Positions 6,241-53,877 are shown, counted from the whole stretch's first letter. The stretch is DNA of 60,624 nucleotides, filler included, from Sphacelaria rigidula (GCA_964200075.2; 9 parts of 9 records of this genome joined end to end with filler, not necessarily neighbours in it), one strand, 5' to 3'. Translations and numbers: made by a program. Notes: a model not told the origin generated them from the letters alone.

Positions 6241-6494
6241 CAGTCATCCTATGATAAGGGGGGGGGGGGGTATTTCGGGTCACTCGTTGCACGAAATTCC
6301 AAGTCCAATCGCCGTTGAAAGCAGCAACGCTTATTCGAATGAGCCGTCGTAGATATATAACGCTGGTTCATACTGCTTGACACCGTGTTTGACCAAGTAC
6401 AAGCGCACCGCGAATGTCACAGGTCGTCTGACACACCTGTGAGCCTTTTCTTCGTGCAATCGCATACCCCAACCCCCCTATCGTAGGATGACTC
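6241..6494. mobile_element. ~255-bp MITE (TIR GAGTCATCCTACGATAGGGGG), copy 1
   Basis: Inverted termini; TGTT on both flanks; homologous to 30052-30306 and ~33753-34009. Confidence 0.8.
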
Positions 6495-13326: not shown

Positions 13327-13395
13327 GGGGGTGTACTCATAATCATGCGTGCCATAGTCATATGACCATTGACCTCGCATCCCTACAAAGCCAGG
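13327..13395 (-). mobile_element. 3' end of C-run-associated LINE (subfamily B), cut by contig end
   Basis: GGGGGTGTACTCAT.ATCATGC.TGCCATAGTCAT..GACCATTGACCTCGCATCCCTACAAAGCC, near-identical to 33564-33636, 40309-40383 and 53804-53877. Confidence 0.75.
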
Positions 13396-15140: not shown

Positions 15141-18100
15141 CAGAGGGTGAAAAACCCTTCGACCAAATTCAAATCGGTCGCGAGAGACGAAGTGGAGGGG
15201 ATGGGAGAACAAGAAGTAGTTTGATTCTCCCGCTCCTGCTCCTTCTCGACACTGTCGGGAACGATCGACAGTGGAGATATGTGATGGAAGCTACTCGCGT
15301 GCATCGAGTTTCCTTCGGGTGGAGCACTGAAACCACAAGACAAAAAACATGAGAAAAAACGTATCTTCAATTCCTCTTTTCGTTCAAAAAGTCGTGTATC
15401 ACCCATCCTTTCCATCATCTCACAAGGAGAATGACGGGATGAAAGCCGCCGTCTAGTTCCTCATCTCGCTGCCCCACTCCCCATTACATCCCAGATTTTG
15501 GAACCAAAAATAAACTCAAGAAAGGAAAAAACACTGGAAGAACACTCGGTTGCCGCCGGTGACATATATCTACACCCTACACATCAACATACAGAGAAGC
15601 ACGGCGACAAGAAACGCAGCGAAAACCGAGCTGTCAATGACCGACTCCACTATAAGAGGCGATACATAGACTTTGCACCGGTTGCTCGAGAAATAAAAAA
15701 AACACACTCGTATACTTCATCCTACTGTGCCGCCTTGCCCCCTTCCCTCCCTCCAGACAGTCCATCGATGTGAGACAAATGTTTAGACAAAACACAAACG
15801 CAGGTGTGTACTCAGACTGATTTGGGTATCGGAGGGTAAACGTGCCAGCGCTTCGCTTGTAGATTACCGCGATCCTACAAATGTGTATGCCGACAGAACG
15901 CGAACGCACACGTTCATGTAGAGTACTGCAGTCTGTCGCTTCTCACACACCACTCAAAACCACGCCACCCACCGACAATGAACCCCCTCTGCCCAACAAA
16001 CTCCTGACAATTCTGTCGGAATGACAAAAGATTACGCCGAAGCCTTCATACCGCAGCGTGCTTGCTGAAACAAGCACATCGACCACCCTTGGAAAATATT
16101 CACAAGCCAAGGCAACAAAAAAAAGCACCTCGAGAGTACAACATCGCGAAAGAATACTACCGAGACAAAACAAAAACTGTTGTGCGACTTGGATGACCAT
16201 GAAACAAAACGCGGATTTTTTACTCTTTCGGCAATTCGTCGTTTGCCCTTCGGGTTCACCTTTTCGACTCCACGACCGTTGTACGTAGGTGGAACTTTCC
16301 CCTCTCCACACAGAAAAATATCCCACAACCGAGACACCAGTAAGCAGCCAAGACACAAGTATGCGCCAACCCAGACGAGGGGGCGACGGGAAAATCTCCA
16401 CAGAGACGCTTCGACGCGGGTCTGGAACATTCCACTCGCGTTTCACACCGTGTCTTGTCGGATCGAGCAGGGAGAAAATTAAAATTTCCTTGCTCACGAA
16501 CTGAAAAAAAAATACCCACGCTACTGACGTGTAGGACGTCTCGATTCGATTTCAAATTTCTGATTTTTTTCGATGAGGACAAAAATACACCACAACCAGT
16601 CCCCTGACCTTCGGGCCCCAACCCCCCGTCAACCATTTCGATCATTTTCCCCTCTTCCTCCACATTCGCTTCTTCCCTCCCTCCCTCTCCGAAAAGAAAG
16701 GGAGGGATACAAAAATGGTGCGAAACTTGAAAAAAAATCAAAACATGTTGACGACAGGAGGGGGGTGTCGGCAAAGTGAACCAAATATGCCGATTTCTTG
16801 TTTTTGCTTTTTCCCGGATTCTTCCCTCGTTGGCGCTATCCTGCCCCAAGGGGCGGAATCACGACCAAATTTTCAAAAATAAATCGGGAATATGTAAGGC
16901 CTGCACGCCCTATCGGTATAAACCACCGCGCCGGGCTGTCGGTGAACCAAGGTGCACGACAACAGCACGGTGAGGGGGATGAGCTACGAGGAGGATTCAA
17001 TGGTGGTGACAGGACGGGGCGTTGAGCGGGCGAGATAAGTGGAGGGGAAGAGAACTTTGGGGATTTTCCCAACCTCCCAATTGCCTGCCCCTGATGAAAA
17101 AAATAGCAACAACCCTCAACCCCCCAGTTTCAAATTTCCTCGACAATGTGACATGCGTTCAACTATACCGAAAGTACAGCGGACATGCAACGGACAACAA
17201 ATATGTCTCTCTCCACAAAACTCGATACAACAACCAAAGAACTGACTGTATTTCGCCGGATCTTGGATACACAGCTATACTACATTACACCTAGTCAGCT
17301 AATCCGAGTGGTTGGGTCGAGACGTAATTACGACGCCGAATCGAATCCGCTGTGCGAGATGTAGAGGGAATACAAATATCGCTCCAGATTATGTGGAACT
17401 GTTTTGCCTAAAGTTCGCACATCTGTACACTATTAATAGCTCTTCATGGTAAGCCGACCCGTTCGTTCAGTCTGGCCGAGATTTTGACCCGTCCACGCGA
17501 ACAGTGTTTCATCTGTAGAATCGGCAATATTTTTCGACTGAAAAATGAGTACCAAGACTCCAGTGTCAACATTAGCGAGCGTCAACAGGGCAAGACTCAG
17601 GGTTGCGTGCATGTTGCGCATGGTCTGATTGCGTTTTCCCGCAAGTCTCCAAGGAGATCTTCGAATCAAAACGTACATCAGACAGGCAGCGGCGCAGTCT
17701 TCGGTTTGCAAAGAGCGTTAATGATGTACACGATGAAAAAGTCAAAGACAGAACAATTATTGAGCCCACAAACTCCCTTGTCATCAAATATCTGACGCAA
17801 AATATAAACTCAACTTCCAACAAAAACGCGGGACTAAAGCTCACCAAATGCTCAAGAAGCGCAAATGAAGAAGCGCCCCGCAATCCATACCGACGAGCTG
17901 TCAACTGCTACATCAGTTTAGCGTACCATCGATTATCCCGTTGATGTACATGGACAAGCACGCGCTATCAATCTCGAGAGATGCGAAGGCGTGAAAGGAG
18001 TCTGCGCCTCTTGCATCACTATTTTAGAATAAAAAAATCACAAGAGGGCGACACATACATGGAAAAAGCCCAACTGACACCTCAACAAAAAGAAAACACC

Positions 18101-23600: not shown

Positions 23601-24309
23601 AGCAACTCATTGGAGCAAGCGAGTGATGCCGCAACAGCCCCCCCCCCCCTCCCTCTTGTTGAGTACGCCCCCCCTCCCTCCAAACCGAACCAAACCAGCC
23701 CCAAGACTGTTACAAAGAAGACGACCACACAGCGAATCTGATTTCAGACTTCATGAAGCCCCTCATATGGGCGACAGCAGTGGCAAATGATTCAAAGCAC
23801 GGGACTCCCCAGCTGCTCGATGTGTTCGACTTTTGTCGTTTTCGTTTACCTGTAGACTTTGCTTCCTCAAACCAGCATTTTTTTTCGGGAGGGTCTATCG
23901 CGGCATCTCTAAACCCGTAATCGTATTTCACAAAAATTACGACCACCGCCTCCTTGGCTGTGCGGCCGGCCTATGCGGCTTGAATTCTGAGCCTGCCCAC
24001 TCGTCTCTCGTTGTGGCTATCGTCCCGCCCTCCCGTCCTCCTTTCCCTCCCCGGCTCCCCCTCCCCTTCGTCATTATTTTCCTCTTCCTCACCCTGCCCC
24101 AGCCACGCTAATATCAAGTGACTTGGTTCCCCCAGCTGGCCAAGCATCAAGTTACGTGGTCACCTACACTCGGTTCGAGTAACTTGCCTTCCCCACTCTA
24201 ACATGAAGTCACTCTTTTCGTGAAGACGTTCATGTGGAACTAGCTCCTGTGTAGTATAGGATCTAGGAAACCCCTTGGAGCGCCGCCTTCCAGCCTAGTC
24301 GAGCAAAAA

Positions 24310-27420: not shown

Positions 27421-28585
27421 CATTTTGGGGGACAGGGATAAGTCATCGTTCAGCGCGAGACGGTGTAGCTCTGTTCTTTGGAGTTCAGAAGCTTCACCTC
27501 CCCTCTCGCCGTCTTGCTCGGGGATTCCCGTTTTCAGCAATTGCGAATATGGTGATGTTGCTGGTGTAGATGATTGTGGTGCCGGCGTCGCAGGCGAAAG
27601 TGCGGGAGATGCCGGTGAAGTTGCAGATGGTGACGGTGCAGGTGATGTAGACGGCGTGGCCGGCGCCGCAGGCGGCGACGCTTATGACGCCGATGTGGTC
27701 AACGCCTTTCCCCGATCGCTGATAGGACCTTGAACGGGAGCATTTAGAATCACCCCGCCCTCTTTCGCCCCCGCAAGGACGAGGTGCAGTCATTCGACCC
27801 CCCGCATCTTGACTTGACATGCATGATCATGAGTACACCCCCCCCCCTCCCCCGCCCGCTATCACAGCCCCCTGAGGTTGGACTTCCGTGCCTTCGGCTG
27901 TAGCTTATTGGTCCCGGTTTCAAGGATGAGATAAGACTACTGTCCGGTGGCGATCCGGGCCACATTTTACATGGTGACTAGTTTCCAGCGTTGGACGAAG
28001 TGGGGGTACAGCTCAAAGCATGGCACGCCCAGCGTGCTTGCTCAGTCCACAGATTGTCACCAGCGGTTTTCGGATACATTTCGGATGACTGAATTTTGGT
28101 CTCAAGGCCGGCTGTCTCGATGATACCTATTGCACGCTGATCAACACTGTCAAACTGCGGGAAAACCTGCGGTTGGCTTCTCCTGCTTGATTTTCTTCGT
28201 CACGCAGAGTAATAAACGCGTCCTCCTAAAATCCATGCCCATTATCACTACGGACCACCTCTACGTTGCGCGGAGTAATAACTGTGAGATACGTAGTGAA
28301 GCAGTGTTCAGCTTCATCCTTCGAACGGAGAAAATACGCCTCAGTGTGCCGAGTGGTCATCACGGACAATTATCATGAATCACCTTCCCCACACCGATCT
28401 AATGGCTTTTGGTCCCGTGAGATCCACAAGCACTCTATGCGTTCGCTTGGCTTTTTGTGTGTGTGGCGATCTTGGAATGGGCCATCAGAATCCTTTGGCC
28501 TCCGAGCTTTCACATTCAGGTATCAGCTCGCTTCGCAGCCCCGTCCCAATTATCTTGGCGATCTTGCGCAGGAGTTTCTCGTGTT

Positions 28586-28745: not shown

Positions 28746-31700
28746 TTGTTGTCTTCACATGAAAAAAGCATGCGATATTTGCAGTACTCCATACTCGGCA
28801 TCTGATGCGGACGCCTTCCGTGGTCACAGGCTAACTACCCACATGAAGGTACAAGAAAGCTAGCCAAAAAATAAACAGGGCCCAGAAAAATTCGCACAGG
28901 CGCGAAACAAAATATAGAAGTTCTACTTACCTAATAAGTTCTGGGGGCCTAGGCGACCATTCAGACTACTCGAGGCGAAGCCCTACGTTCCCACTCGACA
29001 CGCGAGGCCAAACAAAAATGGAGCCAAAGTCAGGAACCAAAAATCACCAACCATAGCAATAAGAATCGCACGGTCCTGTCTTTGTACCTCCAGAGGGACA
29101 GCCACAGGTACGAGTGTACAAGAAAAGCACCACGTACTAACACACAACCTCGGGGAAGGGGTACATTGGAAAATAGAAACTAGTAGGAGATTAAAAGACA
29201 TTTGGGGATGGTGGGGATTCCTGCCACCTCCGTCACGTTTAATCCGGTACCCGCCATTGCCCATCTCCCCCTGTTCTCAATTTGAACCTTCCTTCGCTTG
29301 TTACTTTTTTCGCCCTTCCTTCCTCTGAGCCATAGTCACTGGTGTATTGGTTTTGTTTATGTCCCGTTTAAGGGTATGGGTTCTGCTGACCCCCTGAGTG
29401 ATGGTACGGTAGGGGTTGTACTTTTTTAGCCGAAAGGGTTCCCGGGGCTGCTCGGGTCGTTGGACGGACCATTTCTTGAATCGGCATCACTTTCACCTGA
29501 TAGAGAGTGAAAACGATAGTGATTAACGGAAAGCCCCCGGCGTGCAAACACCATCTTTCTGGGAATCCGGTCCTGAAAGGGTTAGGTTTGAACAGTAAGG
29601 AAGTCCCATATGTTTGTGCTCCTACAAGGAGAGCCCCCAGACCAAAAAGTGCAACGCCTACCGTAGCATTGCTCTTCTCTTTATTCTTGCTCCATGAGGT
29701 CATAAACATTTCCCCTCTCTACAACACCCCGCGTGTCACAGGATCTCTCCTCCTTCTTCGCTGCTGAGGGCCAGAAGACGCTGTCAGTTTTAAACATCCG
29801 TCGGACGTCGTCCGTAGAGCTGTCTGTGGCTCCGAAAAGTTAAAGATCGTCCCTCAGAACCTTCAGCTCGTTTTGCTCCGCGCACCCTGGTCCTGGATCC
29901 TCCCCCCCCCATGAGTGTTCTCAATGCCAGTTGCTCCTTAGTTGCCCGTTCGGTTGTCTAGCCAGGGCTCCCGCGAACAGCGGTTGCCGTTGCCAAGCAA
30001 AGGCTTCAGAACTTTGGCACCCGGTCTTTTTGAGAGCTTGGGCATACCAAAGAGTCATCCTACGATAGGGGGGGGGCGTATTTGATTGCACGAAAAAAGA
30101 GGCTCAAACGTGTGTCAGATGACCTGCCACACTCGCGGTGCGCTTGTATTTGGTTCAAAACGGTGTCAATCGGTATGAACGAGCGTTATATATCCATAAC
30201 AAGCTCGTTCGAGCAACCGTTGCTCATTCCAAGGACGATTTGACTTGGAATTGCGTGCAAGAAGTGGCCCAAAATGCCCCCCCCCCCCCCTATCGTAGGA
30301 TGACTCAAAAGCTGTCAGTATGTGCTACGCACGCGGTCGTATCCGATACCTCCGAGGAGGAGCCGGCAGTGTACCGTCCTCAGCAACTTGTAATGCTCGT
30401 GGCGCGAGTCCCACGTCATGTATCCGTACAGGAGAGCCTCCATCGCCTCCGCCTCCAGCAGTCGGATCTTGAGTCTCTATAGTGTTTTTGGTCGGTCAAA
30501 GAGCTTCCGGTAAAACTTCCTGATGCGCGCCCACGCTGCTCTGCTCCGGTTTTTGATCTCTCGTGTGGGTCCGCCATCTTCGTTGACGAGCACCCCCGAG
30601 TATCGGAACTTAGTGGTCTGTGCACACTTCTGGCCCACGGATTCGACGATCAGTGGCTGGGGAGGTGGTGTTGGCGGCTCCCCCTCCTTTGCTGGTTCCC
30701 GGTACTCGCATCAGAAGAGTTTCCGTCTTCTTCTCCGACGCCGTCAATCCAAAGACCTCAAACACGTGCACGATCTCAGCCATCCTCCACACCGCTCTCC
30801 GTACGCGTTCCAGATGTGTCTTAATCCGCCCCCCCCGCCCCTCCCGTCCCCTAGTCGAGATATACTATGTCCTTGAGGATGATGTCGTCCTCGTTGAATC
30901 GCACGAGAACCATCTCGAGCGCTGCAGCAAGGAAAATATTGAACAGCAGCGGAAACATCGCACATCGTTGTCACGGCCCCTTTGTGACCTCAGACCACTC
31001 CGAGAGCTCCCCGTCGTCCATGCGTACTTGGGCCTGCATACCATCGTGGAAGAAGTGAGTAAATACGATCATCTCACCCAGAATACTAGCGAGCTAGCAC
31101 CTGCCACAAAACCTTTTGGTCGACCGAATCATAGGTCTTCTGGGCGTCGACGAAGCACATGTACAGCGGTGTGTTCTGCCGTCGTTCCAGTTCCTACAGT
31201 TGGCGCACTGCAAACTTTATGTCGACGGTGGATTGATCAGGTCGGAAGCCACACCGTTTCTCCGGTAGTATCTCGTGGCCTTCGCAGTAGTCGCTGAGGT
31301 GGTTGGCCACTCCCTTCCGGGACACCTTTCCTCGTGCGAAATCAGTGAGATTATCCTGTAGTTGTTGCAGTTGGACCGGCCGACTTCTTGTACTAGAGCA
31401 CTCTGATGGTTGCGTCTTTCTGCTCCTGCGGGACCTCATCTCCGTTCCACACCTCGACGAGAATGACATGGAAGCGTTTAAGAACAATGGGTTCGGCACG
31501 ACCGTTGATCTTGAGTAGCTCTACAGGGAGGGAGTCATGTCCTGGCGCTTTCCAATTGTGCATCCCCCGGACTGTTAGTCTGGCCTCTGGCGTTAGTGCT
31601 GGCCCAAGCGGTACCGAATCTCCGGGGAGTAATGCTGCCGGTGGCTGCTTCACCACCTTGATGATGACTGGGTTAGGCGTGGGCGATTTGGTGTTGGGCG

Positions 31701-33563: not shown

Positions 33564-33636
33564 GGGGGGGTGTACTCATGACCATGCATGCCATAGTCAG
33601 AAGATCATTGACCTCGCATCCCTACAAAGCCGGGAC
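33564..33636 (-). mobile_element. 3' end of C-run-associated LINE (subfamily B), cut by contig end
   Basis: Near-identical to 13327-13395; abuts G7. Confidence 0.75.
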
Positions 33637-33752: not shown

Positions 33753-34009
33753 GGTTCATTCACCGATAAGGGGGCGGGTATTTGGTTACACGAAAAACGA
33801 GGCTCATAAGTGTGTCAGACATCCTTCCACACTTGCGTTGCGCTTGTATTTGCTTCCAAACGGTGTCAGGCAGTATGGATGGGCGTTTTTGATCCACAAC
33901 AAAAGCTTGTTCGAACAACCGTTCGTTGCTGCTTTCAACGACGACCTGACTCGAAATCTCGAGCAACAAATGGCCCAAAATACCCCCCCCCCCCTATCGC
34001 AGGATGACT
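33753..34009. mobile_element. ~255-bp MITE copy 3 (left TIR degenerate)
   Basis: Internal identity to 30052-30306; right TIR CCCCTATCGCAGGATGACT. Confidence 0.75.
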
Positions 34010-35207
34010 TGTTGATTCTGGTAGGAGAATACTACAGCAACCGTCTCTGTCCTTATCAGACTATCATAGTACCCGGCCAGTTGAGTCTGGCCCTGTCTGG
34101 AAGGAGACATTGCCTCCTGCCCCAACAGGTTCAAAGTGGCCGTTTATTCAGAAGATACCCTTCTCTTCGGCTAGGCTGTAGGGCCGAATCTTACACGACA
34201 CGGCGTCGAAAACCCGAGTAAACTGGACCTAACATATGAAGAACCCCGATTGGTGGTTAACTCCGGTGTTAATACCAGCGTCGATCGATAGGCGCGCTGA
34301 CCTAAACGTCAACGCTGGCTACATCTATCGCTGCCTTTGCGCAGATTTCACACCAGTTCCCTCTAGAATTGTCATTGGAAAATGGAAAAATATTCCGAAA
34401 CACGTCGGCGCCGTGCGTAGTCCTTTCAAGGCATGCAGTGCACAAAAGGCCTTGGATCGACAAAACTACTGCATCAACACCTACGTGCGGCTTCAAGTCG
34501 AACTCCTGTGAAGTTTCAGCATCACTAGACGCCAGGTGTGCTGTCTTTTGGCGTCTATTCTCTCATAATACCGCCTCCATAGTACTGAAAAAGAGTAATA
34601 ATACCACAGATATAGACCCTAAATTTCAACGTTAAGTTCGAGTACTTTACTGTGCCCACGGCTAGATGGCGATATTCCATCCAAGATACTCAAAGAGCTT
34701 TGTCGTCATGTGTGAGATATGGGTGCGACATTTTCGACAAGGGGGTGGATATCGATAATGTCATATTTATCAACGGGACCGAGAGTTTCCATGCTAGGCA
34801 AATATGATTTTGAGCCCGTTGAGTCATTTTCCAGACAGCACGTCAGACGTGCCGACCACTACAACCAAGCTAGAACAGGCGTAGACTACACAGCATCAAG
34901 CGCTGTACTAAGGATAACGGGAACCTCGCTTGATCTTACGCCGAACTTTGTTTCTCTGTGTATCGTGTGTTGTTGGTTGGAAGCTTGTACCGTAAAAAAA
35001 ACGGTTTTGCAACGTGGACGTCAACACTAGTCCAGTATATTGCGTGTGTGTTGTCTTCCGTGAGGGGCTGTTGTCTGCGACCGCGAACGTCCTTGGTCGT
35101 GAGGGCGAGACAGCAATCGTTGATGCTCTGGCCCTGTCGGTCTTCCCTCGACCAAACTACGAGAGACGCGGATCAACCAGCGTGGAGGACGAGAGAGCTG
35201 TCGAGAC

Positions 35208-36629
35208 ATGGGTGAAAAGCGAGAACACCAAGACGGCTCTGAAGATGCGGGAAAATCTGCTGACTGTGGCAAGTGTGGTGATGTAATGCCGCGAAATCCG
35301 CTCAGATATCACGTGGATGTGCTCTTACATCTGATGCCTTTCATCGCTGGAGAGGGATACTTGTTCGTGGCTGGGGTGTCCAAGCACTGGAGAACTAGCT
35401 GGGGTGATCGGGTAAAAGAAACTCACTTGAGCGTGGCTGTACAGTCGGAATCGTGCCTGGCGTGGTCTAGGGCTAGCGGGTGTCTTTGGAATGAGAAGAC
35501 ATGCCGTCAAGCGGCCATGGTGGGCAGCTTGGAGGCTCTTCAGTATGCTCGGGTCGAGGGTTGTCCTTGTGACGCGTCAACATGTTCGGCGGCTGCTGGC
35601 AACGGGTATCTCGACATCGTCAAGTGGTGCAAGACGAACGGTTGTCCTTGGGATGCTCACACTTGTTCGGAGGCTGCGGCAGAGGGAGAGCTCGAGGTAC
35701 TGCAATGGTCTAAAGCGAACGGGTGTGAATGGGATGGATGGACGTGCCATCGGGCTGCTCAAAATGGCCATCTCGAAGTATTGAAGTGGAGCAGGGCCAA
35801 CGGCTGTCCTTGGGACGAATTCACGAGTGCATGCGCTACTGAAAAGGCCGGTGGCCTTGACGTACTGGAGTGGTGTATCCGCAATGGCTGTCCGTGGGAT
35901 AATCGGGTATGCTCATGGGCGGCGGAGAGGGGAGATGTGCAAATGCTGTTGTGGTGCGACCGTAACGGCATACGCTGGGACTGGCGCACAAGTGGGGGAG
36001 CTGCTAAGGGCGGGCATCTTCTGGTACTGAAGTTGCTCAGAGCTTTGGGCTGTCCGTGGGATAAAAGAACATTCGAGTACGCTGCTATCGGGGCTAATAT
36101 TGAGGTAATGGGATGGTGTAGGGCCAACGGTTGTCCATGGGATGAAGGAACATGTAAAGGAGCTGCCCGGAGCGGGGACATAGAGGCGCTGCAGTGGTGC
36201 AGGGCCAACGGCTGTCCCTGGAATGAAGAAACGCCTACTTACGCCGCTGAGGGAGGATATTTGGAAATACTGCAATGGTGCGTAGCCAATGGCTGCCCCT
36301 GGGATGAAAGCACGTGTAGCGCAGCTGCTTTCGGCGGCCGTCTTGAGGTCCTGCAATGGTGCAGGGCTAATGGATGCCCTTGGGATAAAGAGACGTGCAA
36401 GTATGCTGCCTATACTGGGCGGCTTGGGGTCCTGCAGTGGTGCAGAGCTAATGGTTGTCCATGGGATCACTGCACGTGCAGGGCTGCCGCTAAGATGGGG
36501 CACCTTGGAGTGCTCCAGTGGTGCAGAGCGAATGGCTGTCCTTGGGACGAAATGGCGTGCGAGCTAGCTGAAGCACGTGGACATGCAGAGGTAGTGGAGT
36601 GGTGCAAAACCAATGGCTGTCCGTCGTAG
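35208..36629 (+). CDS. GCPW-type ankyrin-like repeat protein with F-box-like N-terminus (473 aa, intronless)
   Basis: 14 tandem ~27-aa repeats GCPWDxxTCxxAAxxGxLEVLQWCRAN; N-terminal VLLHLMPF...FVAGVSKHWR resembles an F-box; uninterrupted ORF ending in TAG. Confidence 0.9.
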   Translation: MGEKREHQDGSEDAGKSADCGKCGDVMPRNPLRYHVDVLLHLMPFIAGEGYLFVAGVSKHWRTSWGDRVKETHLSVAVQSESCLAWSRASGCLWNEKTCRQAAMVGSLEALQYARVEGCPCDASTCSAAAGNGYLDIVKWCKTNGCPWDAHTCSEAAAEGELEVLQWSKANGCEWDGWTCHRAAQNGHLEVLKWSRANGCPWDEFTSACATEKAGGLDVLEWCIRNGCPWDNRVCSWAAERGDVQMLLWCDRNGIRWDWRTSGGAAKGGHLLVLKLLRALGCPWDKRTFEYAAIGANIEVMGWCRANGCPWDEGTCKGAARSGDIEALQWCRANGCPWNEETPTYAAEGGYLEILQWCVANGCPWDESTCSAAAFGGRLEVLQWCRANGCPWDKETCKYAAYTGRLGVLQWCRANGCPWDHCTCRAAAKMGHLGVLQWCRANGCPWDEMACELAEARGHAEVVEWCKTNGCPS

Positions 36630-40308: not shown

Positions 40309-40383
40309 GGGTGTACTCATGATCATGCATGCCATAGTCATAAGACCATTGACCTCGCATCCCTACAATGCCGGGACGGAGCA
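40309..40383 (-). mobile_element. 3' end of C-run-associated LINE (subfamily B), cut by contig end
   Basis: Near-identical to 13327-13395. Confidence 0.75.
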
Positions 40384-44110: not shown

Positions 44111-47100
44111 ATGATCAGCTGTTTAAACACCGGGCACAATGCCATGTATTACGAAACTGGTATTTCGATTAATACTTTGAATGCGACTGTAGCCTATTGA
44201 CCCGTCACAATTCCAAAGAATCGTATATCGATGTTTGTTTGCTTGTGAAATATACATCTAACGACTTACCCGTCGGGATGTTGAGCCTTTGACTACCAGG
44301 GTTAACAATCAGGGTCACGCCGTAATTTTCCAAGTGAAAATGATGCCGATCCCACAAACGGCTGAAACACCCACTCTCAATCACATGCTATACGCTCCAT
44401 CTCACGGAAACCTTGTTGAGTGTACGTTTTGATTGAGAGTGAGATTGTTTTGGTCTGTTCTTTTTGTGGAGTCAGCAGTATTTTCACTTGAAAAGTTACT
44501 GCGTGACACTTATTACTAACGCTAGCGGTCACAGGGCTAGTATCCCGAAGAGTTAGCCGCTGGACACACAACCCGAAAGCAAACAAAACCCCGATATACG
44601 TTTCTTCGAAATCACGACGGGTTACTACCCTACACTCGCATCGGATGTAAAATGGAATAATAGCAGTATTATGTGCGACGTGTAATTATAACCTACTCAA
44701 CATAAAGCGACGCATTGATGAGATGAATGTTTCGATGGTTCATATCCTCTTTCGACAGTGATTTCATGAGTTCGAGAGTAGAAGGTTGATTGAGAGTCGC
44801 TTTTATCCGTTGCTTGAGATTGACGAATTTTTCATTGCGTTTTTCTTTGTATGTAAAACTGGCGTGTGCTTACAGCTACAAGCCGGTACCCTACTCAGGG
44901 ATATCAAGTAGGGCTTCAGTGGCAAGCTACTACAGTGAGCGTAACGGTCCTTGTGGAGGGTTATCTCGGAACTGAAACTGTTGACTCATGAAATGATTGC
45001 TCCTCACCCTCAATCGTATCCTCTACTCTCAATCTCACGAAAATATTGTTAGATTCCTCTTCTCTTTTCGTTATTTCAACAAAATGGATCATTTCCTAAT
45101 ATTATTCAGAGATCAAACGAATAACGCGTGTTGCGCAGCGTCATTTGAATAAATTCCTTGAACGCCAGGGTGGGTGAGCAGTTATTAATCAGCATCACTA
45201 CACTCGACATTCAGAAATGTCAGTGTTAACGGATTATTGAAAACACATAGCAGCAACCCGTTTCTAGTCAAAGCGTGACTCTCGATCAGAAACCGCACTC
45301 TTAATCCGACGGAAATGTTGTTGGGGGTGGAATTCCGACGAATGCATGTCCCCACTCGTTTCCAGGATACACGGACTACTGAATACGTGGTGGATATGCA
45401 CATGTAGTGTTATGAGGTCATCAGTTATCATAGAGTCCATGCATTTTCAGATTTAGCTTGGCAACGACTACCGACGGCCATCACGCAAACGCTCGACCTC
45501 GACTGAACCCCACGTCCTGGGGTGGCGTCGGTGTCGACTTCTCACACTTGAGTGAACAAGCCAAACGCAATGACCTAGAACAAAACCAACTGTATGGTGA
45601 AAAAGGGATAAGATACGCTGTATTCAGCTGTATGCTCGTAAGTTATGCATGTGCTTCTTCAAATTTGCCATTTAGTTTTATCGATATTAAACACGAGCTG
45701 TACCGCGCGTTTGGAGTTTCTTGAAGATGATCATGTGCATCGTTGTCATTTTTCTCTATGTAGGTGTATGCTCGAAAAGTATATGCCTGTTTAGATGTGT
45801 CTGTATGCAAGTATGCGGTATGGTGCATCAATCCATTATGTGCTACGTCGTACCTCATCCAGCTAATTTGTACGAGTCTCTCGATCGGCCGCCCGATTTC
45901 GTCAAGGCCACGAAACCCGTGGTCATGCTTGATGATGACAAACATTAGAACACCAATAGAAAACAGTACACTGGAGGATAGCATGCCACTACCGTCCACT
46001 GGCATTACATTACAGTTTTATATCTGCACATGGTGCCCGTCAAGGTTTGGAACCTTCGACGGGAACCATGCGCCACCATCACATACAATCGACCTCACTT
46101 CGTTATCGATGATAAATCTTGTTCTTATCTTCCAGGATCCCCTATAACGTGTAGAATGGGAAACGTATCCCAACCCTGTGCCGAAATTGGATGCCTGTCG
46201 ACACTGGATGGTCATATTTGCATTCGAATCTAACCATATTTTCTGTACCTGACTTAGTCTGTTCTACTGTAGCTCAATTGGGGGCTTCAACAAGTCCTCA
46301 GTGATCTGTGAATCACGCGAGTGAACTGCCGCGGCATTCATTGCTTTACTACGACATGATTGATGCTGATACAAAAGCGCATGTAAAAATTGTCCGAAAT
46401 TCGGAGGGAGGGGGTTGGGAGGCTGAGCTGTTTCCCCCATGATGTCCGCCTGGGCCTTGGGTTGAAAGCAAACAGGATAGTCGTCACCAATCATATTGTA
46501 AAGGGGTACGTGTTGACTCCCCATTGTTTCGTACACCTATGCCGCTGCGTCGCACGCGCCCGCCTCTCGCGGACGTTCCATCATCTACGAGAATGTGTCG
46601 TGGGCAAGATTCTCTGCCAGGTCTAAATTGCATTCGTATTCTCGTGTCGTCGCGGTCAGCGTCGCGCAGCTTACAGACACACGAACGGACGACAAAGCAC
46701 TTATACTCGTACACAAACGGTGGGATTCAGCGGGTACAGGTGGCGCTACAAAAGGTCTGAGGGGTACTATAGTACTGTAGTTCATGCGGTATTTACGTGC
46801 ACCACGAACCGACCGCACTTTTTACTCTTATGTTTTTTTAACTGCATGAATGCATATGCGATGGACAACACATCAACTGAGTGAGCACGAAGTTCCCGTT
46901 GACCAGCGGTCCTCGTCGGATACCCTGGATATCTGACGTCTCGAGGAACTCCCCTGGCGAACCACGACGAAAATGTATGTGGGTATGTCCACATCCACGG
47001 ATCACATAAAGCGGAGGCGGGGAGGGGGGGGGGGGGCGTACTCATTTAGGCGGGGAGGGGGGGGGGGGGGGGGGGGGGGGGGAAAAGAACAAAAAAAAAC

Positions 47101-47239
47101 AACCGTAGAAAGGACGGGGGGGGGGGGGGGNNNNNNNNNNNNNNNNNNNNNNNNNNNNNNNNNNNNNNNNNNNNTTAATTAATTAANNNNNNNNNNNNNN
47201 NNNNNNNNNNNNNNNNNNNNNNNNNNNNNNCCGGGCCCC

Positions 47240-47935
47240 CTCTCGAAAGGTATGCGTGGCCCATGATCAAACCGCTGAGGCAAGCAAAAAATGAGTACCC
47301 CCCCCCCCCCTCCCCCCCTCCCGATCGTAGCATGACTCCTTAGGGGAAAGGAAGAAACGAAGACATAAAGACATAAGGAAGAGAACAAGGGCCAATCTAA
47401 ACCTGCCAAGTAGGGTTATTGGTGTGTTCAACTATTGTCCGGCTGATGGGCACCATCGTGAGTCCCAGCTCGGTGTATCGGTAGATTCATCCACCCGATG
47501 GGGCAGCCTCGAAACGGTGAATGGAGGCACAGAAAGCACATATGTCAGCAAATCATGGTCTACTTTAGTGGTGTGGGTCAACGTGTGCGGTGGTAATACG
47601 TACCTTACTACGTCAATGTAGAGACCACGAGCCCGAGCTTAAAAGTTCGGACAACTGTCTTGTCTTTCTTCGTCGTACTTTTTCAACCCCCCCCCCCCTA
47701 CCCCCGCCCCCCTCCCCCCCCCGGTGCTCCGTCTCGAAAGGGATGCGTGGCCATGGTCAAACGATTAAGGCAAGCAATAACTGAGTACGCCCCCTCCCCC
47801 CCGCCCCTCCCACACCTTACCTTTCTCGAGCCTGGTTCGGCGACAACTCTGCGCGCTCCGTCCCGGCTCTGTGGGGATGCGAAGTCAATGCTCTAATGGC
47901 TACAGCGTGCAAGATCATGAATACATCCCCCCGCT
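47240..47935 (+). mobile_element. Cluster of three 5'-truncated C-run-associated LINE 3' ends
   Basis: ~47240-47298, ~47722-47789 and ~47855-47927, each ending TGA(G/A)TAC followed by C-runs. Confidence 0.7.
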
Positions 47936-49734: not shown

Positions 49735-50189
49735 CTGCCATCGTCACAAGATAACAAACACGAGGAGGTAAAGAGCAAAAGAACAGTCGATCGTCTATTT
49801 GATGTAGGAGCAAAATAATATAGACAGTGTACAACTATAGCGAGGAATGAGAGTTTGTATCTCACGTCTTTCCTTCTGCGGCTAGTAAAAGCGGTGTGAC
49901 GAGAGAGGTATATGCTACGTACTCCCCGCCCACTCGCGGGGTCATTGCGCCCTCTATACCCTCGGGGGGTGGACTGAAGGGGTCAAATTTTTCACCTCGC
50001 GTGTCTTCACTCGTAATTTGTTTTGTTTTTTTCGCATGTGTAACGCGATGGTGCACGCACACAAGAGATGAGATATTTTGACGGTGGATCGCTACTATTT
50101 CTGTCGTTTTGCTTTTCAGATGTACAGCACCAACTGTCTCCATTTTCGCGTCGCATAAATGCAATATATCTTTATACCTGTGTGTGTGT

Positions 50190-50534
50190 TGTAATCTCAT
50201 CTATTCTGGACGCCGGTCTACACCTTCCGATATATGTGGGCGCACCAGCCGGGGTCATACACGAGGAAGGTCAACACAGGAGTTTTTCCTTTGTTGATTG
50301 TTTTGGTTCTCCACCTTCCTTCTGCGGTGCTTGCCTTTCTTTTTTATCGCGAAAGGGGTTCAGCAGTCCCTTTCCCTCGTCGACCATCAAGTCGATTTTT
50401 GTGTACCTACGACATAGTCGCTCTCCACCGTTGGGTATTGGGTAAGAAAAAATTCCAGATCGCTCCGAGATTTGAATCCATGATCCAACCGTCAGAGGGT
50501 TTCGAGGTTACTAACTGAGCCACCGGGGCGACCG
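50190..50534 (-). mobile_element. tRNA-derived SINE family B
   Basis: The - strand head GCCCCGGTGGCTCAGTTAGT (A box) ... GGATTCAAATCTC (B box-like) is followed by a T-run and a ~270-bp body ending at a (CA)n-like tail. Confidence 0.7.
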
Positions 50535-50750
50535 TTATATAGACGAAGTGTATGTATATACGTGTGTGTTAAATTGAACACGCACACACAAAACGCTGAC
50601 GCCTGGTTCGTGCAATAGTGGAAAGCTAACTTTGGACTGTTGTCATTGTCCTGTCGACTGCCTGTATACGTCTTGAATGTGCACCTGTGTGATCCTTTCA
50701 CCCAGTAAGCTTGCGGTGGGGAAGATTCGTGTGCAGCAGTAGTACTCCTA

Positions 50751-51083
50751 CACACGCGGCCATTTGGCTATCTCCGAAATTCCTCGAGGTCGGTCAACTT
50801 TTCGAGCCTTCGGAGGAATTAAACACCTCCGGAGAGGTGCGCGGTCCTCCAGAGGATATTTTTTGGTTTCCTCCAGAGGGATTAAACGCCTCTGGAGGCT
50901 TATTTTTGCCTCTGGAGGGCCGCGCAAACCCCCAAATTCCTCCGGAGTGGTGCGCGGCCCTCCGGATCGGTAGAGTTTGGTTTGCTCCAGAGGGATTGAA
51001 GGCGTCCGGAGGCTTGTTTTCCCCCTGGAGGGCCGCGCATCCCTCCGGAGGCATTTTGGGATGTAACCGAATGGCCGCGTGTG
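50751..51083. mobile_element. CACTA/CMC-like MITE copy 2 (TSD TA)
   Basis: TA|CACACGCGGCCATT...AATGGCCGCGTGTG|TA. Confidence 0.85.
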
Positions 51084-51510: not shown

Positions 51511-51845
51511 GCAATCATTTAATAACATTGGTATACAGTAGTTACATACATGCGTATACCGCCTTCTGTAGTCACGCGGAGACAACGAACACCCGTGCAT
51601 AAATATCGGATGGAATAAAAGTTGTCCCTCTACGTACACCTGCCCCCGAACAACAGTTGAAAAACGCAAAAGATACGAGCGGGTGACTCCCAAGAATTGT
51701 GCTGTTTACCGTAGGCAAACCTCCTGAGTGAAGTGCTTCCAAGAATACCTACAGGCCCACACATAGTTTTGCACAGATCTCCCGCAGTACATTTCGTTTC
51801 AAGTATTCGCTCTTCTGCTTCACGCTATCCCCCCCCCCCCCGCAA

Positions 51846-52095
51846 TGAATGGTCAAACGACTAAGGCAAGCAACAAATGAGTACGCCCCCCCACACACAC
51901 GCAAAAAGGGTAGGTACTATGAGGTACACGTTGGTCACAGACGGTGAAACAGGAATGGGAAAAGATAGGTGAACCGTTTCTTGTGTCGAAAAGTATGCAA
52001 GAAACGTAATGAGCGCCCAAATGTAGGAGGCGGCTCTATTAGGAGTAGGCACAGTGCTCCGTCTCAAACGACTAAGGCCACCAACCGATGAATAC
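51846..52095 (+). mobile_element. Two truncated C-run-associated LINE 3' ends (subfamily A)
   Basis: TGGTCAAACGACTAAGGCAAGCAACAAATGAGTACG-CCCCCC, preceded by a long C-run; a second diverged copy at ~51985-52095. Confidence 0.7.
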
Positions 52096-52230
52096 GCCGC
52101 GCAAATAACCGTCGCCTCCACGCCCCCCACGCCGTAACGGCGTCTTTCCTAAAGTAGCGTTAGCCTGCCGAGATAATTCTCAAGAGCCATCCCACCATAG
52201 GGGTAGGGTGTAGCTCGTTGCCCGAAGCGC

Positions 52231-52605
52231 GGGGGGGGGGGGGGGGGGGGGAGCGTACTCATTCGCTGCTTACTTTAGTCGTTTGACCATTGACCACGCA
52301 TCCCTTTCGAGACGGAGCACCGTTCCTACTCCTAATACAGACACCTCCAACACTCCGGCGCCCATGACGTTTCTTCCATACATTGCACAAATACCTTTTA
52401 TATATCTTATATCCTCGTCCTGTTTCGCCGTCTCTGGCCACCATCCATCTCCTAGTATAGCCATCGTTTTCTCCCTACTGTCTAATGCATCAAACGATTC
52501 CATGCCACCTTCGTTCACGTCCCGCATTTCCCCCTCTAGCACGTCCCGTGACTCGAATAAAAAAGAAAGTAAATCTGTTGCAACTCCAATTATGTGTGTA
52601 TGTGG
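52231..52605 (-). mobile_element. Longest copy of the C-run-associated LINE: ORF2 C-terminus remnant
   Basis: THIIG...RDVLEGEM...AILGDGWWP / YLCNVWKKR...GAPSRKGCVVNGQTTKVSSE*. The stop codon lies ~5 nt before a ~20-nt C-run; no poly(A). Confidence 0.7.
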
Positions 52606-53803: not shown

Positions 53804-53877
53804 GGGGTGTACTCATGATCATGCCTGCCATAGTCATCAGACCATTGACCTCGCATCCCTACAAAGCCGGGACGGAG
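53804..53877 (-). mobile_element. 3' end of C-run-associated LINE (subfamily B), cut by contig end
   Basis: Near-identical to 13327-13395. Confidence 0.75.

Follow-up and report, generated by a model that had tools for sequence, protein, structure and literature searches.

A very high-copy repeat of Sphacelaria rigidula is the 3' end of a brown-algal LINE that probably targets C/G homopolymer tracts

Introduction

Target choice is the least understood step in the integration of long interspersed nuclear elements (LINEs). In stringent-type LINEs, such as the L2-type elements of eel and zebrafish, the reverse transcriptase (RT) identifies its own RNA by a conserved 3' stem-loop. The target duplication of L1 begins with a homopolymer (A/T) that pairs with the RNA 3' end, and simple-repeat tails are known in other LINEs. 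A further group combines an apurinic/apyrimidinic (AP) endonuclease with specificity for microsatellites and includes, in the passages of PMC3812793 drawn on here, Waldo (ACAY), Mino (AC), Kibi (TC), Koshi (TTC) and Dong (TAA). The repeat-specific families already known have served as natural experiments and as a basis for tools that direct insertion to chosen sites. Here a very high-copy repeat is described from a 60,624-base stretch of DNA of the brown alga Sphacelaria rigidula (GCA_964200075.2), analysed as a whole and referred to below as the window. The repeat belongs to a LINE, nearly all its copies are followed by a run of C residues, and the evidence that this run marks the target site is weighed against other explanations.

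Results

The repeat is the 3' end of a single-open reading frame LINE

Nine contigs of 6647-6648 nt, each included whole and separated by N/TTAATTAATTAA spacers, make up the window. Beyond it, the analysis drew on protein collections, four contigs from metagenomes, a contaminant contig found in a bacterial metagenome-assembled genome (MAG) and contigs assembled from public runs (Logan). When the frame running through 52548-52273 (-) was used as query, 562 protein fragments were matched at E<=0.001; one of ten fragments checked was a protein of Ectocarpus sp. CCAP 1310/34. A search for longer proteins gave 16 matches, including P0157 (1360 aa) and P0163 (1328 aa). Both contain the Pfam domains RVT_1 (E 9.8e-31 in P0157 and 1.7e-32 in P0163) and Exo_endo_phos, the latter located in P0157 at residues 170-392 (E 3.4e-12), N-terminal to the RT. 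The open reading frame (ORF) is ordered as an N-terminal region of ~165 aa, an AP-type endonuclease, the RT and a CCHC knuckle (CPCG...H....C) ~100 residues from the ORF end. The AP-type nuclease was the sole nuclease family reported by Pfam on the element ORF. The Exo_endo_phos_2 model, with a cut-off of 27.4 bits, passed in P0157 (30.6 bits) and fell below in P0163 (21.9); as a guess, this match would fit a Jockey-type label. Compared with PDB, the P0157 RT matched L1 ORF2p (E 6.6e-21) and R2 proteins (8.8e-20), and its endonuclease part gave nothing significant (best E 0.03-0.06). Some distant RT homologues carry zf-RVT, PHD or RNase H domains.

Two long nucleotide sequences extend these data to the DNA of the element. 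The metagenome contig L003 carries an intact open frame of 1426 codons that ends at the TGA of TGAGTACG, and L007, a 5259-nt contig in the MAG that is clearly algal contamination, aligns without interruption over the full 1360 residues of P0157 at 88% identity. Over 1358 codons L003 and L007 differ with a synonymous divergence (dS) of 1.04 and a non-synonymous divergence (dN) of 0.154; the resulting dN/dS of 0.147 indicates that the ORF is under selection. No sense-strand ORF of at least 60 aa is present in the 1067 nt upstream of the LINE ORF in L007. Both contigs begin inside the element, as do L001, L002 and L004, and the longest copy is at least 5.15 kb. The first ~200 nt of the reverse-complemented L007 appear by eye to consist of ~65-nt tandem units unlike the element 3' end. 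The window copy used as query represents only the last ~98 codons and aligns to P0157 residues 1252-1359.

These data show that the repeat is the 3' end of a brown-algal LINE of at least 5.15 kb that is autonomous, has a single ORF and belongs to the AP-endonuclease type. A first-pass annotation, made from the window sequence, had proposed a non-LTR (long terminal repeat) retrotransposon and had named the absence of an upstream RT as evidence against it; an RT is found upstream in P0157 and P0163, and the identification is borne out by full-length relatives with AP-type endonuclease, RVT_1 and CCHC knuckle and by a dN/dS of 0.15.

Searches for the element elsewhere gave no further copy in G001 and no match (0) in the viral contigs scanned, and L005, retrieved from genome contigs, was rejected as a chance match in a bacterium. 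In L007 an open frame of 426 codons (450-1730, +) also runs antisense to the LINE ORF, probably as a by-product of codon bias. A fragment of a different LINE RT, with 29-42% identity to P0157/P0163, lies in the window at 30929-31331 (-).

Copies in the window

A search of the window for TGAGTACRCCCC with at most one mismatch yielded 12 matches against a mean of 0.39 expected, and 0 of 100 dinucleotide shuffles of the window reached 12. Homology to one another extends upstream of the motif in 11 of the 12; the match at 15803, which was absent from the first-pass list, has no such homology and is probably due to chance. All 12 copies on that list are real, the one at 47855 being a diverged copy of ~72 nt, and one old copy at 51915-52096 is added to them; the copies sit on six contigs and not, as claimed, on seven. 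They share the 3' end TGAGTAC(G/A) with variable 5' truncation, the family as a whole spanning 11 nt to at least 5.15 kb. Eight copies have both ends inside a contig and measure 11, 12, ~32, 38, 69, ~72, ~200 and 296 nt, so that the proposed variability in truncation is upheld among complete window copies from 11 to 296 nt; five further copies are cut off by contig ends. The two alignable subfamilies that had been noted are likewise recovered as two tail types, subfamily 1 ending ...GGCAAGCAACAAATGAGTACG and subfamily 2 ending ...GGCATGCATGATCATGAGTACA. The copies and their flanking tracts are as follows.

52254..52549 (-): 296-nt 5'-truncated LINE copy, subfamily 1; last ~98 ORF codons and a 5-nt 3' untranslated region (UTR)
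52259..52261 (-): TGA stop of the LINE ORF, first three bases of TGAGTACG; frame ends ...GQTTKVSSE*
52231..52253 (-): 3' flanking tract CT+C21 of the 52254 copy; on the + strand, G21 at 52231-52251
51915..52096 (+): older degenerate copy with an internal deletion; 77-85% identity to L003:4796-4997
51848..51885 (+): 38-nt copy, 100% identical to L003:4960-4997; C13 on the 5' side (51829-51841), C7 on the 3' side (51886-51892)
47722..47789 (+): 69-nt copy, 91% identical to L003:4929-4997; C-rich tracts on either side (47687-47721 and 47790-47812)
47855..47926 (+): diverged ~72-nt copy with a subfamily-2-type tail; ends ATGAATACAT, then C6 (47927-47932)
47231..47298 (+): copy interrupted by the contig start; next come C12-T-C7 (47299-47318) and 15 nt matching the family Y terminus (see below)
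47037..47047 (-): 11-nt insert AAATGAGTACG; exact 22-nt direct repeats at 47015-47036 and 47048-47069
23656..23667 (+): 12-nt insert ending TGAGTACG; exact 13-nt direct repeats at 23643-23655 and 23668-23680
27806..27837 (+): ~32-nt subfamily-2 copy, 5' limit approximate; C6 upstream (27798-27803), C10 downstream (27838-27847)
13332..13395 (-): subfamily-2 copy interrupted by the contig end; C5 on the 3' side (13327-13331)
33571..33636 (-): subfamily-2 copy interrupted by the contig end; C7 on the 3' side (33564-33570)
40312..40383 (-): subfamily-2 copy interrupted by the contig end; just C3 on the 3' side (40309-40311)
53808..53877 (-): subfamily-2 copy interrupted by the contig end; C4 on the 3' side (53804-53807)

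The longest window copy (52254-52549) has 88.5% identity to L003:4704-4997. By tblastn it matches P0157 in two different frames, at residues 1310-1359 (68%) and 1252-1324 (47%), and a 2-nt insertion at 52416-52417 shifts its frame; the frame reading RDVLEGEM... is the true one only upstream of that insertion. The 5' end was set at 52549 by DNA alignment together with a loose end in the Logan contigs, and these overruled an extension to 52602 hinted at by tblastn. The feature had originally been drawn as 52231..52605; DNA homology spans 52254-52549, and 52231-52251 is the G21 run. The older copy at 51915-52096 lies tail-to-tail with the 52254 copy and its C-run has decayed to CCGCGC. Contig 8 holds, with this previously unlisted copy included, seven copies in 6.6 kb in tandem and nested arrangements.

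Logan contigs from four runs were placed on contig 8. In run X1 the depth of unique sequence was ~25 and the summed depth of the element ~2 million; summed depth over-counts copies, and the copy number, which is very high, is therefore stated just as thousands to tens of thousands. Run X6, only guessed to be RNA, covers the repeats and leaves unique sequence almost uncovered, and no conclusion on expression is drawn from it. Five of the 18 contig ends in the window fall 64-72 nt inside the element, a spacing that we infer to reflect an assembler word length near 77 and not biology. The LINE repeat explains why short-read brown-algal assemblies break up at its copies, as seen here in those five of 18 ends.

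The element ends 5 nt after its stop codon and is followed by a C-run

The window frame ending ...NGAPSRKGCVVNGQTTKVSSE* matches the C-termini ...NGAPSRKGCVVNGQMTKASNK of P0157, P0163, P0155 and P0156, and the frame and stop codon given in the first-pass annotation are therefore right. All four long ORFs end ...NGAPSRKGCVVNG(Q/L)MTKASNK. The ORF stop is the TGA of TGAGTACG and the element ends 5 nt further on, leaving a 3' UTR of 5 nt. The same stop position is seen in L003, where the open frame ends there, and in L007/L006, where an uninterrupted 1360-aa match reaches the TGA. The earlier reading of this TGA as an ORF2-like stop followed by a 3' UTR of ~5 nt thus agrees with four ORF C-termini and with the end of the L003 frame.

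At five of five independent loci outside the window, TGA(G/C)TACG is followed by C11, C8, C10, CC-T-C7 or C13 and then by unrelated sequence. Taking these with the 13 window copies, at least three C residues directly follow the element at 17 of 18 junctions, the exception being the copy ending at 52096 (CCGCGC). Neither a poly(A) tail nor an A-run was present at any of the 18 3' junctions (13 window, 5 outside), as had been proposed. The 3' run ranges from 3 to 21 nt in the window, and the sequence beyond it differs from copy to copy, each having a unique flank. Logan contigs leaving 51892 into a consensus of at least 16 C residues numbered 792 in X1, 780 in X3 and 530 in X4.

The last ~68 nt of the element are conserved between the subfamilies and contain two predicted hairpins, of which the stems are kept and the loops differ. 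The predicted fold closes by pairing of GUGCUC with the terminal GAGUAC and has z-scores of -1.3 to -2.0.

The element end is also read in a second frame. Among the protein fragments matched by the window frame, 25 of the 150 listed read through it in this way, 19 of the 25 going straight into at least two prolines (CCN codons). At the subfamily 1 end (51848-51892; P0001, P0042, P0101) the second frame is open into the C-run (...RLRQATNEY-A-PPP), and gene callers therefore emit many spurious poly-proline-tailed proteins.

Evidence for the C-run as the probable target

Exact target duplications of 22 nt and 13 nt flank the inserts at 47037 and 23656, respectively. Each starts with the C-run and includes unique bases, 9 in the former and 6 in the latter, making chance duplication unlikely. 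The 22-nt repeats each read C13+TCCCCGCCT, with 26 C in total on the 5' side, and the 13-nt repeats each read C7+TCCCTC, with 12 C on the 5' side; no element end precedes either the 26-C or the 12-C run. Duplications at 51848 and 27806 are all-C, and none is recognisable at three of the eight complete copies. In all four readable cases more C residues lie on the 5' side than on the 3' side (26/13, 12/7, 13/7 and C9/C5), as would be predicted for a nick inside the G-tract that leaves the whole tract 5' of the insert and the primer part 3' of it.

A run of at least six C residues lies within 15 nt of the 5' end in five of the eight complete copies compared with 0.7% of oriented window positions (binomial ~1e-9), the five cases sharing low-complexity surroundings and so not being fully independent. 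Among them, the 5' C-runs noticed in the first-pass annotation were found at 47687-47721 and 51829-41. Within run X4, a 5' end at 52319 is shared by 199 contigs that run on into a long G-run, that is, a C-run 5' of the element. Joints between C/G runs that switch strand or jump kilobases were left out of the Logan evidence, since k-mer graphs can mis-join at homopolymers. Tandem copies with a C-run between them occur in P0063 and P0072, and in 90 X1 contigs a subfamily-2 end is followed by four C's and then by a subfamily-1 copy of 68 nt.

Paralogous sites are provided by family Y, which resembles miniature inverted-repeat transposable elements (MITEs). The run following the LINE in L003 and that at 47299-47318 in the window both abut the 15-nt terminus of family Y, and five uninterrupted family Y copies in the window hold C6-C14 at that same place. 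Family Y is a LINE-independent source of C/G runs that has apparently been used as a landing site.

Family Y itself (~250 bp; 6243-6494, 30053-30305 and 33953-34010) has long inverted ends, each with a G/C run of C6-C14. This run lies 15 nt from the terminus TATCGTAGGATGACT.

The duplications, the 5' runs and the family Y sites together make tract targeting the best reading, and from these sequence arrangements the element probably targets pre-existing C/G tracts. The C-homopolymer targeting suggested in the first-pass annotation is accordingly favoured, although not proven, by the 22- and 13-nt duplications, the C-runs 5' of five of eight copies and the C6-C14 runs of family Y. To the extent that these sites allow a check, the refuting condition named in that annotation, a target without a C-run, was decided in favour of targeting. 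Several observations weigh against it. No orthologous empty site was seen, and no copy-removing joint was among those listed for the Logan contigs on contig 8. The copies at 47855, 52254-52549 and 51915 have neither a 5' C-run nor a clear duplication, the last depending on where its 5' end is placed. Both exact duplications flank extreme inserts of 11-12 nt, which are possibly atypical events, and the 5' junction of a full-length copy is not reached, L003 and L007 starting inside the element. The narrow range of 8-13 C at the five outside loci would fit an element-borne tail too, and the MITE argument rests on two matches of 13-15 nt (blastn E 0.001 for L003). Compensatory changes are seen at 0 of the 14 pairs of the terminal fold. 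The sample is small and skewed to low-complexity contigs.

Alternative explanations

The same LINE might instead carry the C-run as its own tail, produced as RNA-templated oligo(C), by RT slippage or without a template, with integration that is not tract-specific and 5' runs that are the tails of earlier neighbours. A run after nearly every copy and the narrow range of 8-13 C at the outside loci are what such a tail would give, and tandem copies exist, so that an upstream run can be the tail of an older copy. The 26-C and 12-C runs at 47037 and 23656, however, have no element end before them and are followed by the same 9 or 6 unique bases as the runs on the 3' side, and so the target must have held a C-run at the nick even if the element also bears a tail. 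Uninterrupted family Y copies already have the run, and 3' runs in the window differ in length (3-21 nt). An element-borne tail in place of targeting is therefore considered unlikely. Under either model of the target, the short copies could represent a discrete tail-only, non-autonomous element of ~68-72 nt (or a composite) moved in trans by the LINE. A 5' end does recur ~68-72 nt from the 3' end, in the window copies at 47722 (69 nt) and 47855 (~72 nt), in joints of 52317-52320 to 53804 in 90 X1 and 68 X3 contigs and in the loose end at 52319 in 199 X4 contigs, and the predicted fold closes by the GUGCUC/GAGUAC pairing. Against this, copies of 11, 12, ~32, 38, ~200 and 296 nt occur too, 68 nt hold no promoter or head, the fold z-scores are only -1.3 to -2.0 without covariation, and the summed depth 70-300 nt from the end is as high as that of the last 70 nt (in coarse bins). 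Either a hot spot of truncation or a tail-only element may account for the recurrence of 5' ends near -68, the second being a rather doubtful but real alternative.

It is highly improbable that the repeat is something other than a LINE tail, such as an LTR end beside a polypurine tract, a DNA-transposon terminus, a Penelope-like element or a poly-G artefact of sequencing or assembly. The opposite strand does read as a G-run followed by TG..., like a polypurine tract and the start of an LTR, and poly-G artefacts occur on two-colour sequencers. The sequence upstream, however, is the C-terminus of an endonuclease-plus-RT ORF, the flanks past the run are unique in every copy, and an identical junction is found in assemblies from five other records. 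Pfam gives an AP-type nuclease and reports no other nuclease family, and a comparison of the window with Rfam gave neither a ribozyme nor any other RNA family. An LTR retrotransposon was rejected, conserved internal sequence beyond the tract being absent and the ORF consisting of endonuclease and RT with other Pfam families absent; a Penelope-like element was rejected as well, the nuclease being of the Exo_endo_phos type and not GIY-YIG, and the window having no Rfam match at gathering scores, to a hammerhead ribozyme or otherwise.

Other features of the window

A second very high-copy repeat lies at 50117-50560 (-), with a summed depth of ~0.9 million against ~25 for unique sequence (X1). Its tail recurs at a contig start (20243-20320) and ends in (CA)n, unlike the LINE 3' end. 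The head near 50535 looks tRNA-like by eye and was called neither by ARAGORN nor by Rfam at E<=1. A 113-bp tandem repeat of 1.9 copies occupies 50826-51039 (summed depth ~55,000). Among 11 long window ORFs, Pfam found ankyrin repeats only; the sole recognisable cellular gene fragment is a 501-codon open frame at 35124-36629 (+) that encodes ankyrin repeats (Ank_4, 1.7e-23) and contains an 81-bp tandem repeat. Neither Rfam at gathering scores nor ARAGORN gave anything in the window.

Discussion

The arrangement of the copies suggests a mechanism in which pre-existing (dC)n.(dG)n tracts would receive the LINE through target-primed reverse transcription. The single protein of the LINE would bind the conserved last ~68 nt of its own RNA, a probable handle for the RT, and the predicted endonuclease would nick the G-strand inside the tract. 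The exposed oligo(dG) 3' end would then prime cDNA at the very end of the RNA (...GUACG), which may carry a few read-through C's pairing with the primer. A second nick would fall 0-9 nt past the tract, so that the duplication would consist of part of the C-run and a few unique bases, the 5' side retaining the entire run and the 3' side part of it; 5' truncation would be frequent. Every insertion would turn one tract into two, favouring clustered and tandem copies, in agreement with the tandem and nested arrangements found in contig 8, P0063, P0072 and the 90 X1 contigs.

Such a LINE would multiply G/C runs, because its insertions duplicate part of the tract. The window contains 69 G/C runs of at least 6 nt and 20 of at least 10 nt in 60 kb, and on a reading of the run list ~8 of those 20 touch a copy. 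A tract-duplicating LINE would also explain the genome-wide abundance of G/C runs. That a G-strand-specific endonuclease and priming reaction, with duplication of the tract, is, at copy numbers in the thousands to tens of thousands, a main cause both of the excess of long G/C homopolymers in brown algae and of the clustering of the element itself is a tentative proposal, somewhat less probable than its opposite. If true, this would be the first homopolymer-C/G-specific LINE, with a 3' UTR of 5 nt and priming by oligo(dG) instead of oligo(dT), and its priming rule would be simple: oligo(dG) on an RNA ending ...GUACG(C)n. Use of C/G homopolymers would add a different target class, in which one strand is pure G and prone to unusual DNA structures.

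Literature searches found no C/G-homopolymer LINE and no target sites of brown-algal LINEs, within a coverage that excluded Repbase and supplements such as those of the Ectocarpus and Saccharina genome papers, any of which may name the family. LINEs are annotated in brown-algal genomes, the same host group, and the passages available on them contain no description of 3' ends or target sites. The family is probably already present in brown-algal repeat libraries under an existing LINE label.

Comparison with stringent-type LINEs shows a likeness in the last ~68 nt, which are conserved across subfamilies with differing loops and a predicted fold. Unlike in those LINEs, covariation is seen at 0 of 14 pairs, and a short interspersed nuclear element (SINE) partner with this tail was not found in the window. 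The brown-algal element resembles human L1 ORF2p (PDB 8uw3, 8c8j) in having an AP-type endonuclease followed by an RT (RT E 6.6e-21) and in its 5'-truncated copies. Its duplication, like that of L1, starts with a homopolymer, which is C/G and not A/T, and it differs from L1 in having no poly(A) tail or signal and no separate ORF1.

The closest resemblance is to Waldo, Mino, Kibi, Koshi and Dong as described in the passages of PMC3812793 cited above. As in these families, copies have one type of simple repeat next to them, here the C-run that lies right after the 3' end of nearly every copy, and poly(A) is not needed. C-runs are present on both sides of five of the eight complete copies, two duplications include the run, paralogous family Y sites carry the run and no orthologous empty site was seen. 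The target differs from theirs in being a mononucleotide C/G tract, a class outside the list in those passages, and where their hosts are insects or fish the present element has a brown-algal host, a single ORF and a 3' UTR of 5 nt. The favoured interpretation is a repeat-specific LINE of known type with a new class of target, the C/G homopolymer.
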